The notes under the pieces were generated by a model, which searched no databases, had not been told where the DNA came from, and saw only the letters and a list, made by a program, of their open reading frames with translations. Both the position numbers and the translations under genes were made by a program. A stretch of 64,000 nt of DNA from Eledone cirrhosa (Eukaryota): positions 23,684,001-23,748,000 of the forward strand of contig OZ024758.1 of assembly GCA_964016885.1 (NCBI GenBank), given 5' to 3'. Below are positions 26,421 to 36,027 of this stretch, piece after piece (within the stretch, counting starts at the first letter, position 1; each line of letters begins with the position of its first letter).

Positions 26421-26614
26421 TAACGAAGGAAATGTGGTAAGGAACCAGGTGGACCATAACGCACCAAAGTACTCAATACTTGAGGTAGTAGAGTGGGTAA
26501 TAGGAACCAGTAAGACCCCGACAGCTGAGCTCAAGCCGTTTCGACGGCTAATTCTCAGAATTAGCCGTCGAAACGGCTTGAGCTCAGCTGTCGGGGTCTT
26601 ACTGGTTCCTATTA
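26421..26614. mobile_element. Family C element with terminal fold-back (copies 26986-27178, 35648-35815, 46000-46117)
   Basis: Shared TAACGAAGGAAATGTGGTAAGGAACCAG end. The palindrome is centred on GACGGCTA..TAGCCGTC followed by GAAACGGCTTGAGCTC. Confidence 0.8.
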
Positions 26615-26703
26615 TATATATATATATATATATATATATATATATATGCGTGTATGTATATGTATGCGTGTATATGTATATACATATATAAATGCATATA
26701 TGT

Positions 26704-26955
26704 ATGTCAAAAGTGACACAGAGGAGACTGAGGTTAGCTGGACATGCTCACCGACATCCAGAGTTGACATTGCACTCAGTGCTCCTGTGGGAGCCCCTAC
26801 ATGGACACACTAGAAGAGGAAAACCAAGGTTAACGTATGTTGATGCCCTAAGGACAGACACTGGTCTGTTGGAGACGCAGGACATGGCAGCGATAATGAG
26901 GGACAGACACCGCTGGAGAGAACTCGTCCATGGATCTCGGGAATTTTACCCGCCC
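26704..26955 (+). mobile_element. RTE-type LINE ORF C-terminal fragment
   Basis: RRLRLAGHAHRH..LLWEPLHGHTRRGKPRLTYVD..MRDRHRWR matches the RTE-clade C-terminus. Confidence 0.8.
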
Positions 26956-27177
26956 TATATATATATATATATATATATATATATATAGGAAAAAGTATGA
27001 CCCCGACGGCAGAGCTCAAGCCGTTTCGACGGCTATTTCTGGACTGAAATAGCCGTCGAAACGGCTTGAGCTCGGCCGTCGGGGTCATACTTTTTCCTAT
27101 TACCCACTCTACTACCCTAAGTATTGAGTACTCTGGTGCTTATGGTCCATCTGGTTCCTTACCACAACTCCTTCGTT

Positions 27178-27589
27178 ATTAATAAATGGAAACTATATTT
27201 ATAAAACCATATTTATTTCATTATACATATTTCAGGGATACCAAATTAAATTATGGTATGCCTTCATCAGACAAAATACAATATATAATAGTTTTACAAA
27301 TAAGCTTTAACGTACCCAGATGACTTCCAAAAACAATGGTTGCATTTTAATAGGGTACGTCAAAGCTTATTTGTAAAACTGTTATATATTGTATTTTGTC
27401 TGATGAAGGCATACCATAATTTAATTTGGTATCCCTGAAATATGTATAATGAAATAAATATGGTTTTATAAATATAGTTTCCATTTATTAATATCGTATA
27501 TCTACTCCAAATACTTGTCGAGTGCTTTATATCAGTTATAAAAATATTTACTTGTTGTATCCCAACAATTTTAAATAGAACTTTTGCAT
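27178..27589 (+). mobile_element. Family B Penelope-like terminal remnant with inverted duplication and HHR-like core (27400-27440)
   Basis: Arms 27178-27317 and 27353-27492. CTGATGA-AGGCATACCA..TGGTATCCCT-GAAA. Confidence 0.75.
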
Positions 27590-28438
27590 ATATATATATA
27601 TATATGTGTATATGTATGTATGTATGTATATATATATATGTATATATATATATATATATGTATGTATATATATATATATGTATGTATATATATATATATG
27701 TATATATATATACACACACACACACACGGCTGTGTGTTTATGTATGCACCTGTTCATACAAGCGCCCTCTAGGTGCAACAGCTTGTAACAATGATTTGAT
27801 GCAGTGCTGTTTAGGCAAGATTTGGTAGATGTGTGTATATTGTTATTATTATATATGGAAGTCTACAAAAAAACCTTCGTGTGTATATGTATGTGTGTAT
27901 GTGTGTATATATATGTGTGTGTATGTCAACGTTTTTGTTTTCATATTAACGTAGAAATATACAATGTAATGGTATGATATATAGTATAATAATATAATAA
28001 TAATAATTATTATATATATAAATATATATATATATATATATATATATATATATATATATATATATATATATATATATACGTGTATGTAAGTATGTCTGTG
28101 TGTATGTATATATATATATATATATATATATATACACATATACACACGCACTCACATACACATATATGTGTATGTAAATGTGTATATATATATATGCGTG
28201 TATGTATATGTATGCGTGTATATTTTGTATATATATATTTATACATACATATATACATATATAAATATATATATATATATATATTTATACATACATATAT
28301 ATAAATATATATATATATAAATATATATATAAATATATATATTTATAAATATATATATAAATATATATATATAAATATATATATATAAATATATATATAT
28401 AAATATATATATATAAATATATATATATATATATATAT

Positions 28439-29000
28439 ATAAAATATTAAAAAAATAATGAATAAAACAATGAAACAGTTCCTTATATTAAACAAAAAAA
28501 GTTCATTATTTAACGATCGTTTCTAGGATATATATGTGTTAGAATTGGCATGCATATTCAACAGATCTATGTACAAAATTATACAAAATTATACAAACTA
28601 TCAAGATTAAATATACATACCAACACATATATATGCCGTCTTCAGAAATAATTATTATTTCTGAAGACGGCATATATATGTGTTGGTATGTATATTTAAT
28701 CTTGATAGTTTGTATAATTTTGTATAATTTTGTACATAGATCTGTTGAATATGCATGCCAATTCTAACACATATATATCCTAGAAACGATCGTTAAATAA
28801 TGAACTTTTTTTGTTTAATATAAGGAACTGTTTCATTGTTTTATTCATTATTTTTTTAATATTTTATCTTGACTCTGTATTCCGTTTATCTTTCACCAAA
28901 AGTGATATTTCATTGCATCTCTTCTTTCCATGATATCCGGATTACATTGAGTTCTTCATACGGATTGGACACTACCGTAAACTCTTGGTAGATTTATCTA
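28439..29000. mobile_element. Element with a near-perfect 430-bp palindrome (centre 28653) containing two opposed HHRs
   Basis: Arms 28439-28652 and 28654-28867. Confidence 0.85.
28654..28801 (+). ncRNA. Type I hammerhead ribozyme with about 115-nt stem II domain
   Basis: ATTATTT-CTGAAGA-[GGCATATATATGTGTTGG..CTAACACATATATATCC]-GAAA-CGATCG-TT-AAATAAT. Confidence 0.75.
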
Positions 29001-29534
29001 CATATATATATATATATATATAAATATATATATATATAAATATATAAATATATATAAATATATATATATATAAATATATATATATATATATAAATATATA
29101 TATATATATATATATATATATATATATATAAATATATATAAATATATATATATATAAATATATATATATATATATAAATATATATATATATATATATATA
29201 TATATATATATATATATATATATATATATATATATATATATATATATATTCATAAATATATATATATATATATATATTCATAAATATATATATATATATA
29301 TATATATATATATATATTTATAAATATATATATTTATAAATATATATATATATAAATATATATATTTAAGTAACAGCCGTACTAAGAGTGGGAAATGAAA
29401 TTTCGTTTCATTTTTTCCGTGTATCGTTTTCGGTGTACCCGGCCGATTAACCCACTCGATATGCAAATTGGGCTACTCAGCCGTTAATATGCATAAGGTA
29501 AGTATATACGTTCAACAATCTGGCAGGAAGGTAT

Positions 29535-29577
29535 ACGTTGCTGACGATAGCTAATAAGCTTGAAACTAGTACAGCGT
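29535..29577 (+). ncRNA. Minimal type I hammerhead ribozyme
   Basis: ACGTTG-CTGACGA-TAGCT(AATA)AGCTT-GAAA-CTAG-TA-CAGCGT. Confidence 0.85.
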
Positions 29578-30107
29578 TCCTTTGTCAGTGTTGAACAAAC
29601 GAGCAACGATGGTTGCTGGACACTACGGCTTAATACGGGATGTTTGTTTACAAACACACCGAGCATTATAATAAATGTTCGGTGCATCCATACGTACATA
29701 TATATATGTGTGCATGTATGTATGTATGTATGTATGTATGTATATATATATATATATACATACTACTGTACGTCTGTATACATATATGTATGTACGTGTA
29801 CATACTTATATTTAAGTAACAGCCGTACTAAGAGTGGGAAATGAAATTTCGTTTCATTTTTTCCGTATATATTTATACATATATATATATATGTATAAAT
29901 ATATATATATATATATATAAATATAAATATATATATTTATACATATATATATATATATAAATATATATATTTATACATATATATATATATAAATATATAT
30001 ATTTATACATATATATATAAATATATATACTTATACATATATATATATTTATATATATATATATATATATATATATATATATATATATATATATATATAT
30101 ATATATA

Positions 30108-34466: not shown

Positions 34467-34515
34467 GCTTCCTGAAGATTTCATCTGAATGAAACAGTAC
34501 TAGTCCTGTAGAAGC
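34467..34515 (+). ncRNA. Type I hammerhead ribozyme inside fold-back element 34326-34555
   Basis: GCTTC-CTGAAGA-TTTC(ATCT)GAAT-GAAA-CAG(TACTAGTC)CTG-TA-GAAGC. Confidence 0.85.
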
Positions 34516-34579
34516 TCCTTCTATAAAATAAAAAAAAAGAAAATAAAAAAAAAAATATATATATATATATATAGTAATA

Positions 34580-34762
34580 ATAATTGTTTCTACGTTTGGC
34601 ACAAGGCCAGCAATTACTCAGTGCATTACTGGTACTTTATTTTATCGACCCCGTAAGGATGAAAGGCAAAGTTAACCTTGGCGGGATTTGAACTCAGAAT
34701 GGCAAGGGCCGTAACTCTATACGTCAAAGCATGGCGTCCGACCCTCTCCCAATACTGCCAAA
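34580..34762 (-). mobile_element. SINE family 1
   Basis: Consensus match. Confidence 0.9.
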
Positions 34763-34853
34763 TAATAATAAATGTGAAGACTAAAATCCAAAGAGGGCTC
34801 GATAAGGATAAATATATATCAAATATATAAGAACCGTAGAGCAAATATATATT

Positions 34854-34954
34854 AAAATAACAGATTAAAGTTTAAGCAAAGAATCGCTGCTTTCACCCTT
34901 AACTGTTAAGGGTGAAAGCAGAGATTCTTTGCTTAAACTTTAATCTGTTATTTT
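34854..34954. repeat. Near-perfect palindrome of about 100 bp
   Basis: ..TTTCACCCTTAAC-T-GTTAAGGGTGAAA.. with arms of about 50 bp. Confidence 0.9.
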
Positions 34955-35095
34955 TATATATATATATATGTGTGTGTGTGTGTGTGTGTGTGTGTGTGTG
35001 TGTATGTGTGTGTGTGTGTGAATGAAGTAATTCCGTCGGTTACAGAGCTTAATTTTGTTTTTAAAATCCAATGTCAATAAATACACCACGATTTT

Positions 35096-35156
35096 TTTCT
35101 TTCTGATGATTGAAAGCAAAATTTGTTTGCTTTCAAGAAACCACTGGTAAATGAAA
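35096..35156 (+). ncRNA. Type I hammerhead ribozyme
   Basis: TTTCTTT-CTGATGA-TTGAAAGCAAA(ATTTG)TTTGCTTTCAA-GAAA-CCACTGG-TA-AATGAAA; perfect 11-bp stem II. Confidence 0.8.
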
Positions 35157-35428
35157 TAATTGCCTTATGTTGTTTATTACATAACTATATATATATATAT
35201 ATATATATATATATATATATATATAATATAAGATCAAAAGATGGTTAAAGGAGTTCCATGTATTTTATTATGCGCATTTCAAAAACAAACATCATCATGC
35301 AATAATATTTGTGTTTTCATCAGATAAAACAGGAGAACATGATATGAAGGCTAAAAAACACTTGTGGATAGTGCAGTTTTAAATCAACATATCACAAGTG
35401 TTTTTTAGCCTTCATATCATGTTCTCCT

Positions 35429-35497
35429 GTTTTATCTGATGAAAACACAAATATTATTGCATGATGATGTTTGTTTTTGAAATGCGCATAATAAAAT
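35429..35497 (+). ncRNA. Type I hammerhead ribozyme in fold-back 35223-35536 (mirror copy on - strand at about 35262-35330)
   Basis: GTTTTAT-CTGATGA-AAACACAAATATTATT(GCAT)GATGATGTTTGTTTTT-GAAA-TGCGCA-TA-ATAAAAT. Confidence 0.85.
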
Positions 35498-36027
35498 ACA
35501 TGGAACTCCTTTAACCATCTTTTGATCTTATATTATGCATACTCCAGTCCTACAAACTGTAGAGTGCTTCTTATCCGATATCTGCATTGCTTTATTGTAC
35601 TACAATAAAACTCACCTCCTACATATATATATATATATATATATATATAACGAACGAAGTGTGGTAAGATACCAGGTGGACCATAACGCACCAGAGTACT
35701 CAATACTTAGGGTAGTAGAGTCGGTAATAGGAAAATATTCAAGAGCTCAAGCCGTTTCGACGGCTATCTCTAGAAATAGCCGTCGAAACGGCTTGAGCTC
35801 TGCCATCGGGGTCTTGAACAATCTTCTATAATTCTACATTCTGTTTACTCTCTTCTCAGTACTGCCATTCCTATATCTCTTCTCTCTCTCTCTTCTCCCC
35901 CCCCTCTCTCTCCCTTTATCTCTCTCTCCCCCCTCTCCCCTTATCCTAATCTTAGTACTATCATGATCGATATTTTTACATTCAACTCTAACTGTTTATT
36001 TCTTATTTCATATCACTTCAGCTCCAT

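Follow-up and report, generated by a model that had tools for sequence, protein, structure and literature searches.

Head-to-head inverted copies of Penelope-like element 3' ends in Eledone cirrhosa: breakpoints at likely RNA start sites and, in a minority, at a predicted hammerhead cleavage site

The 64,000-nt stretch of Eledone cirrhosa contig OZ024758.1 analysed here, referred to as the window, contains a series of head-to-head inverted insertions of Penelope-like elements (PLEs) with hammerhead ribozymes (Table 1), an identity correctly recognised in a first-pass annotation. Near-perfect palindromes were found at all positions named there, with centres at 26556, 27042.5, 35771.5, 34904, 3732.5, 28653, 34476 and 60542. 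The motif CTGANGA was counted 38 times in the window, compared to 17.3 expected, and the junctions at 3732, 28653, 34465 and 60513 do lie 1-8 nt from a real CTGANGA core. The list behind the broader proposal that inversions pivot on the ribozyme was selective. Five further ribozyme-bearing palindromes (27335, 31411, 46513, 35379 and 43303) have their junction about 40-90 nt 5' of the respective core and these, as well as the fourth family C inversion at 46000-46117, differ from the proposed pattern. The axis at 34854-34954, described as the same as that of family C, was found to break in loop II; however, it is unlike most other family D copies and the core is CAGAAGA.

Table 1. Inverted PLE copies in the window. 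Family C positions are counted from the G of GAAA, set to 0 (26542 in the 26421..26555 arm).
Feature	Coordinates	Strand	Remarks
Family E palindrome	3661..3804		Junction 1-8 nt 5' of CTGATGA; probably an individual event, other family E copies extending further
Family C tail arm	26421..26555	-	-13 to +121, ends in (TA)n; order: stem III, cleavage triplet, stem I 3' strand, 79-nt tail
Family C no-tail arm	26556..26613	+	-14 to ~+42; GAAA at 26570; blunt junction at 26556, centre of 1 nt
Family C no-tail arm	26985..27045	-	Extends to A-18, the main 5' limit and likely transcript start
Family C tail arm	27046..27178	+	-12 to +121; GAAA at 27058
Family A inversion	27177..27580		Core CTGATGA at 27400; tail arm falls ~8 nt short of the family limit YC|ACTATCC, beginning ~81 nt 5' of the core
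Family F palindrome	28439..28867		Two arms both start ATTATTT, 7 nt 5' of CTGAAGA; TC precedes the A of ATTATTT in the single long copy seen
Family A palindrome	31232..31590		Axis ~70 nt 5' of the core at 31484; counter-example to a ribozyme pivot
Family B inversion	34397..34555		One arm from 6-7 nt 5' of CTGAAGA (family limit); second arm begins just 5' of GAAA
Family D palindrome	34845..34963		Axis in loop II; native family D core CAGAAGA
Family H inversion	35223..35600		Core at 35436; one arm to the limit TC|ATATG, 69 nt 5' of the core; C after the limit fits a non-templated G, yet the other arm also begins natively with C
Family C tail arm	35648..35771	-	From ~-13; internal deletion between stem III and tail
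Family C no-tail arm	35772..35813	+	From ~-13; GAAA at 35785
Family I palindrome	43036..43570		U3-A8 core TTGATAA; junction >60 nt 5' of the core
Fourth family C inversion	46000..46117		Tail arm from +40, no-tail arm from +7
Family A palindrome	46337..46689		Arms fall ~11 nt short of the family limit and begin ~78 nt 5' of the core
Family G inversion	60457..60627		Joint through CTG microhomology, shared by the core (one arm) and the base of GAAA (other arm)

Family C was identified by its sequence motifs as the 3' end of a Hydra-type PLE. The intact open reading frame of 786 codons at locus L149 (P0001) combines, as read by eye, the reverse transcriptase motifs FDIES, MG and YRDD with a C-terminal GIY-YIG region (VIY..YIG) in a single frame, as in EN+ PLEs. 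It also contains RWR, DKT, CNCPDRSIC (CxCX5C), CNLC (CxxC) and CKH (CxH). These fit the published description of the Hydra clade (Craig et al. 2021, PMC8557442), which includes RWK-like and DKT motifs, a CxCX5C linker, CxxC/CxH around E and N, a C-terminal GIY-YIG-like domain, a hammerhead and (TA)n targets; (TA)n flanks were found at family C copies as well. At L149 a full copy is accompanied by a partial tandem and by an inverted tail arm, the arrangement of a pseudo-LTR, and the Hydra clade likewise has a partial tandem plus an inverted 5'-truncated copy with the tail at one end (PMC8557442). In contrast to that clade, the family C tail is 79 nt compared to the 30-40 nt given for PLEs, the unit is about 3.1 kb, the core is U3-A8 and short two-arm copies occur in tens of thousands (52,348 exact 24-mer matches to the short form). 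The whole L149 protein had no match in Pfam or in PDB, and a fragment from L003 matched GIY-YIG in Pfam only weakly (E=0.069). A 'Neptune-like' label was dropped in favour of Hydra on the basis of the motif description.

Family C has a predicted type I hammerhead fold with a U3-A8 core (UUGANAA). The assignment is based on the 3-8 pair, GAAA, NUH, helices I-III (91-97% paired) and G10.1-C11.1. The core TTGANAA, with G, A, T or C as N, was present in 25 of 32 long copies, and C3 together with A8 in about five of the 32. The three family C palindromes lack the core half of the ribozyme, as had been annotated, but the missing half is not CTGANGA, which was seen in none of 35 aligned stretches (32 long copies and the three palindromes). 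Furthermore, the predicted GAGCTC-CTGANGA consensus does not exist, as GAGCTC sits 3' of GAAA, in the loop of stem III. The GACGGCTA/TAGCCGTC hairpin before GAAAC had been taken for native stem II; GACGGCTA is the reverse complement produced by inversion and belongs to the inverted copy; the 5' strand of native stem II is GCTCGGCTA, located some 45-55 nt upstream. Covariation of the helices showed no excess over shuffles among 20 copies of 89% identity, with the apical helix in the wrong register. No hammerhead family was found among the best 150 of 422 Rfam matches in the window, which were only miRNA-like, on palindromes and simple repeats. PLE hammerheads described by Cervera and de la Pena (2014, PMC4209133) are similarly of type I in a pseudo-LTR with a palindromic loop III, include the U3-A8 variant known from Schistosoma PLEs, and occur as oppositely oriented motif pairs 100-700 bp apart; unlike these, family C has a full stem III of 5-6 bp and a long stem II. 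According to that paper, in vivo evidence for PLE hammerheads was lacking. The family I core is a second U3-A8 core beside that of family C.

Breakpoints were found to be far from uniform along the element, in agreement with the first-pass annotation. Of 151 family C tail arms, 77 end at -24 to -11, a 14-nt stretch 5' of GAAA, where the end hazard is 0.119 per nt compared to 0.003-0.009 in other segments, except for 0.017 at +22 to +24. Tail and no-tail arms share this end zone despite start sites 79 nt apart. Where a single arm abuts (TA)n, its stop coincides with that of paired arms, and at 951 junctions the no-tail arm stops at -14 or beyond though the tail arm stops at +9 to +38. Within the zone, ends are scattered from -12 to -23, with a second mode at -12/-14. 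This spread is wider than one start predicts unless trimming occurred. In run contigs of unrecorded kind, which say nothing on RNA ends, summed depth is 0.14-0.25 M before and about 3 M after a step located between L149:4839 and 4855, with loose contig ends at L149:4844.

The position of the limit relative to the core depends on the family. It lies inside stem II in family C, 6-10 nt upstream of the core, at C|AG, in family B, 69 nt upstream in family H and 80-90 nt upstream in family A. About 17 of 49 family H arms end at -2 to +3 of the A lying 69 nt 5' of C3, and about 21 of 82 family A arms (hand-corrected) at 0 to +11 of the A 80-90 nt 5' of C3. Among the 18 of 29 family D matches listed, most of the other copies extend beyond the core, and most short copies stop 0-13 nt 5' of it. 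Every family limit falls at pyrimidine-A. An extra base was examined in families C, H and A; an untemplated 5' G is the accepted mark of a copied cap in L1 and SVA (PMC4859970). At TA-abutting arms, G exceeded C by 70:30 in family C (first 100 of 299; native T), 74:26 in family H (first 100 of 189; native C) and 24:8 in family A (all 32; native C). The internal control in family H gave G:C of 0:4, from four matches only. In family A the non-C base was G in 43 of 100 cases at the limit and in 18 of 93 seven nt inside it (p=6e-4). A smaller family C set gave 7 G, 6 C and 3 A. At partner-joined junctions a G may derive from the partner arm via microhomology, which the TA-abutting counts alone escape. 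TATAAAT is located 30 nt ahead of the family B limit in five of six long copies, and the TATA-like TATTTAAA 29 nt ahead of A-18 in L149; no clear TATA box was seen at -30 in families A and H. These features suggest that the limits are likely to mark capped RNA starts and not a ribozyme helix. The limits (TTTAG, CCCAG) were also considered as splice acceptors; this was rejected, as the arms contain AG and have no common upstream exon.

The second, smaller breakpoint class coincides with the ribozyme. Position +23, which is L149:4889, is the first base after the predicted GUC cut in family C, and 14 of 81 short tail arms start there, compared to 2.4 on average and at most 5 at other positions. 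Among TA-abutting short arms, 41 of 61 start at +23, seven at +24 and 13 at +21/+22. A minority of copies was thus likely templated by ribozyme-cleaved RNA, to judge from the DNA copies. Truncation by the ribozyme, as had been proposed, appears to account for this minor, sharp peak, but the main pile-up follows the likely transcript start at a family-dependent distance. Family B shows no such footprint of cleavage (1 of 13 arms), and in family H it is blurred by AT microhomology. Family C arms scored at +16 to +18 mostly reflect deletions between the two AGCCGTC repeats and not cleavage.

Both classes could instead be due to stalling of the reverse transcriptase at RNA structure, or to a nuclease cutting in a loop, in which case ribozyme cleavage would not be needed. 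We regard this as improbable, although family C ends do lie on the 3' strand and loop of apical stem II and +23 is one unpaired base 3' of stem III, the base of which is a place where the enzyme could stall. The missing footprint in family B fits this explanation, and cleavage was dispensable in vitro, with no RNA ends at the site (PMC11167929). However, few arms end in the stronger stem III or in the GC-rich base of stem II, where the hazard is low, and the +23 peak is one base wide. Stalling also gives no reason to expect the extra G of three families, the pyrimidine-A found at each limit or the TATA-like box that families B and C have 29-30 nt upstream.

Junctions were studied for the way in which the two arms are connected. 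Exactly one arm carried the tail in 74 of 75 inversions. Among the 67 well-fitted junctions, 60 were distinct and 28 contained insertions; non-insertion junctions had a microhomology of 0-1 in 36 of 39 cases, the level of simulated blunt joins. The arms look end-joined rather than snapped back. The first-pass annotation had instead proposed that cDNA snaps back at the ribozyme helix and primes the inverted strand, and self-priming has been put forward for PLE palindromes (PMC3846280). Head-to-head palindromes with short centres are indeed abundant, and junctions of families C, B and F lie in or beside the ribozyme. Arms are usually of one subfamily, with an identical diagnostic 10-mer in 37 of 50 pairs, and there is a weak correlation of arm length between partners (rho 0.27, p=0.025). 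To fold back at native stem II, an arm would have to extend to -28 or further and retain the loop; only four of the 67 junctions have an arm that long, and none of these has the required form. Microhomology with a loop of at least 3 nt at a pre-existing inverted repeat was not found, and 20 of 41 centres have 0-2 unpaired nt. The stop of the no-tail arm in its usual zone when the partner is shorter, the same stop in single (TA)n-abutting arms, the L094 insertion with arms from two subfamilies, and the pile-ups of families A and H far from the ribozyme all speak against it. Fold-back at native helices is largely refuted, and snap-back at a ribozyme helix is, as a general explanation, very improbable. 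One fold-back contig, a weak signal at a depth of 1.9, was seen in run X5 (organism B). The 37 identical arm pairs are compatible with one source RNA or two alike.

The explanation considered probable is that short PLE 3'-end copies, ending at a likely capped RNA start, were separately primed and end-joined head to head, a minority being copied from hammerhead-cut RNA. The element's own terminal promoter in the pseudo-LTR would start family C RNA at A-18, which is L149:4848, with minor starts at A-22/-23, of which A-22 is L149:4844. As A-18 is inside stem II, this RNA would lack the UUGANAA half and therefore would not self-cleave in cis. The corresponding starts would lie upstream of the core by 69 nt in family H, 80-90 nt in family A and about 6 nt in family B. 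The protein would cut both strands of the target, a (TA)n whose two ends prime the arms, and reverse transcription would begin at +42 and +121, one start per DNA end; this step rests on PMC11167929 and on the one-tail pattern. Each cDNA would extend to the 5' end of the RNA, where copying of the cap would often add a G, and the ends would be trimmed by 0-10 nt and joined with little microhomology or with small templated insertions. Longer read-through RNAs would give long arms, and self-cleaved read-through RNAs arms from +23. A more far-reaching version, to which slightly less than an even chance is given, is that the copies record the whole PLE insertion cycle, in which a dimeric protein primes both ends, strong-stop-like arms end at the cap and hammerheads cut in the germline. 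In family C the choice of start site would then act as a ribozyme switch, promoter-made RNA being unable to self-cleave and read-through RNA able to do so.

The least probable explanation is that a few palindromic master copies spread as non-autonomous units and that later deletions varied the junctions, since long DNA palindromes are prone to rearrangement at the centre and the short form is present in very high number; against this, nearly all junctions are distinct, the limit is common to single arms and to arms joined to tail-truncated partners, short forms occur across many subfamilies, several of them also with long copies, and templated insertions and the extra G are marks of an insertion event.

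In L1 twin priming, annealing of the second primer is internal and the two arms cover separate regions, whereas the arms described here have fixed 3' start sites and duplicate one region. Priming from both target ends, small junction indels and an extra 5' G from a copied cap are shared with L1 (PMC4859970). PAc Poseidon in vitro (Frangieh et al. 2024, PMC11167929) is similar in that both target strands are cut and extended, targets are AT-rich and the tail is defined by two internal reverse transcription starts. Inversions and 5' ends are left unexplained in the accessible part of that paper, which has no reads ending at the hammerhead site; in contrast, the genomic copies studied here have one tail arm per inversion, a likely capped limit and a cleavage-site peak. 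The self-priming model (Arkhipova et al. 2013, PMC3846280) describes head-to-head inverted pseudo-LTRs with junction palindromes and the tail on one arm, as well as TATA and an Inr-like motif in a pseudo-LTR. It assumes self-priming on an antisense template, unlike the two sense-templated cDNAs that appear to be joined end-to-end here, and the present junctions argue against it.

The architecture and the element clade are already known. The origin of inverted PLE ends and the role of the hammerhead are described as open in PMC8557442, PMC4209133 and PMC11167929, and both become testable with tens of thousands of independent junctions. No breakpoint mapping comparable to the present junction counts was found in the accessible part of PMC8557442, and no study linking the breakpoints of PLE inversions to RNA starts or to the site of hammerhead cleavage was found in the open-access literature covered by the searches. 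The junctions predict start sites in several families, and the +23 class would be a base-precise sign of a PLE hammerhead cleaving templates that were later inserted. The intact open reading frame of L149 is usable for in vitro work.

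All eight palindromic structures named in the first-pass annotation were recovered by a palindrome scan of the window, together with several more. They are not local to the window, since a 24-mer of family C, a Penelope-like element (PLE) family there, had 52,348 exact matches in this 3.0 Gb, (TA)n-rich animal genome, and a 32-mer of its tail had 27,720. Contigs of sequencing runs reproduced the depth profile along the family C element, so an error of this assembly cannot by itself account for the palindromes.

Family C copies end at +42, or at +121 with a 79-nt tail (G of GAAA = 0). 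An endonuclease and reverse transcriptase frame was found upstream of the long copies. A whole element is present at one sampled locus, L149, where an inverted tail arm and a partial tandem accompany an open frame of 786 codons; counted from the first ATG past the tail, the frame has 719. Its protein motifs RWR, DKT, CxCX5C, CxxC and CxH agree with the Hydra clade as described in PMC8557442, compared by description alone. The element and its architecture are of already known kinds; the literature searches turned up neither such a mapping of PLE inversion breakpoints nor its implications.

The first-pass annotation had placed the pivot of the inversions at the hammerhead ribozyme, through cDNA snap-back or truncation. 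The breakpoints do cluster, and the lead was a productive one. Their most likely pivot, however, is the 5' end of the RNA, the ribozyme probably accounting for a minor class only. At loci selected neither by core probe nor by length, 77 of 151 family C tail arms ended at -24 to -11, a few ends at -22 to -25 being over-extended by the aligner. The hazard per nt was 0.119 in this interval, 0.017 at +22 to +24 and 0.003-0.009 elsewhere. Both arms ended within -24 in 63 of the 67 well-fitted junctions (of 75), the no-tail arm having its mode at -18 and the tail arm two modes, -18 and -12. The starting points of the two arms are separated by 79 nt; it is therefore the position on the template, and not length, that sets the stop.

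Exactly one tail arm was present in 74/75 inversions and none was tail-less, many of these loci having been picked by the tail probe. The ratio of double to single tails (1:74) and the lack of tail-less pairs among core-picked loci indicate that the arms are coordinated. Microhomology was 0-1 in 36/39 non-insertion junctions, and blunt joins simulated for comparison gave 86%; ties in the fit are resolved towards less overlap, and the opposite tie-break gave 24/30. Insertions, often copied from nearby, were seen in 28/67 junctions, and 60/67 junctions were distinct. Centres free of mismatches had 0-2 unpaired bases in 20 of 41 cases. A diagnostic 10-mer was common to both arms in 37/50 pairs (15% at random), and the L094 inversion combined arms from two subfamilies. 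The extension of both strands and the two start sites described in PMC11167929 suggest a pair of cDNAs, each made from a different target end. The junctions fit this scheme better than the self-priming of PLE palindromes proposed in PMC3846280.

For families H and A, arms were gathered with probes 3' of the ribozyme (8,169 and 8,721 matches). About 17 of 49 family H arms ended at the A of TTTTC/ATATG (limit at the slash), 69 nt 5' of core position C3, and 14 ran well past it. In family A, about 21 of 82 arms, a count hand-corrected for subfamilies without a reference, ended at most 11 nt inside YC/ACTATCC, 80-90 nt 5' of C3. Stops lay mostly 1-10 nt 5' of C3 in family B and about 7 nt 5' of C3 in family F, which accounts for the junctions at 34465 (B) and 28653 (F). 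Those at 3732 and 60513 look like single events, because other copies in their families extend further (12 and 14 matches compared). The ribozyme is thus not the pivot in general; the limit lies in or beside it in families C, B and F, but far away in A and H.

At every family limit an A follows a pyrimidine, as in the Pol II initiator consensus. TATAAAT was found 30 nt before the family B limit in 5/6 long copies. In L149, TATTTAAA stands 29 nt before A-18, the main family C limit; no clear TATA-like box preceded the limit in families A and H. In hand counts from listings of TA-abutting arms, the base before the limit was 70 G:30 C in family C (native T; first 100 of 299 matches, four G rows sitting in one tandem), 74 G:26 C in family H (native C; first 100 of 189) and 24 G:8 C in family A (native C; all 32). 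An internal family H position, used as control, gave 0 G:4 C. The non-C base in family A was G in 43/100 at the limit versus 18/93 seven nt inside. A broader family C listing gave 7 G, 6 C and 3 A, and at partner-joined junctions many G's may come from microhomology. An untemplated 5' G in L1 and SVA is read as a copied cap in PMC4859970. We infer that the family limits are likely capped transcript starts, and the capped 5' end of the RNA is the most likely pivot. A family A junction (L221) carried several tandem templated copies of the arm 5' end, each starting with an extra G.

The CTGANGA core predicted for the family C consensus was present in 0/35 stretches (32 long copies and three palindromes). 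Of the 32 long copies, 25 had a TTGANAA core, in which N7 was any of the four bases; about five had C3 with A8 and two others were broken. U3-A8 is a PLE hammerhead variant already described in PMC4209133. ACCCC/GGGGT forms stem I, GCTCGGCTA/TAGCCGTC forms stem II and encloses a long loop, and CGGCT/AGCCG forms stem III with a palindromic GAGCTC loop. GUC follows stem III, and the predicted 3' cleavage product would therefore start at +23. The helices were 91-97% paired in 20 copies at 89% identity, with no covariation in excess of shuffles. Of the hairpin GACGGCTA/TAGCCGTC earlier taken as stem II, TAGCCGTC is the true 3' strand; GACGGCTA belongs to the inverted arm, which made that assignment circular. 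In L064, L112 and L113, tail arms had lost GAAA and stem III by recurrent deletions between two AGCCGTC repeats, suggesting template slippage across the ribozyme.

Among tail arms with a long no-tail partner, 14/81 started at +23, other positions averaging 2.4 and never exceeding 5 (first 100 of 951 matches, less 19 duplicates, stem III deletions and complex joins; Poisson 3e-7, or 5e-4 with +22 and +23 pooled). TA-abutting tail arms have no partner microhomology, and their 61 unique events comprised 41 at +23, 7 at +24, 3 at +22 and 10 at +21/+22. Of 41 family H arms, 11 clearly and 11 ambiguously started at cleavage+1 and 15 further 5', compatible with a cleavage footprint; family B had no such peak (1/13). 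The +22 to +24 class made up about 4% of the family C tail sample (6/151). It is likely the ribozyme's own contribution, minor and base-precise, with stalling of reverse transcription at the base of stem III as a possible other source of +23 starts. An inversion whose tail arm begins at +23 and whose other arm extends to -14 or further was probably made from two RNA molecules. The family C subfamily in the table would break the 3-8 pair and offers a natural control for this class.

Further features are collected in the table. In L109 and L123, the tail end of family I seems to continue into the 5' part of the family itself, which points to short tandem units of a retrozyme-like kind. The family D fold is possibly inactive or an undescribed variant. 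The long frames look like additional PLE families, and nesting in common (TA)n tracts makes these tracts insertion hot spots.

Coordinates of further features in the window and at sampled loci (L)
Feature	Location	Further loci	Observation
Family I	window:43036-43570	L109, L123	hammerhead with U3-A8
Family D	window:34845-34963	L064, L095, L123	hammerhead-like fold, CAGAAGA core, A at position 4; cleavage position U, conserved among copies shown
Family C subfamily	L143:8195-8314; L114:6168-6287		CTGAGAA, C3 with A8; about a quarter of run depth there
Long reading frames	L145:455-2596 (-)	L147, L150, L151	one of 714 codons
C beside A	window:26421-27580		nested end to end, shared (TA)n tracts
H beside C	window:35223-35813		nested end to end, shared (TA)n tracts
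Complex array	window:11900-12500		unit about 150 nt, direct and inverted copies; no (TA)n flanks, no hammerhead core noticed
Tandem array	window:53984-59350		about 5 kb, AT-rich, extreme GC skew
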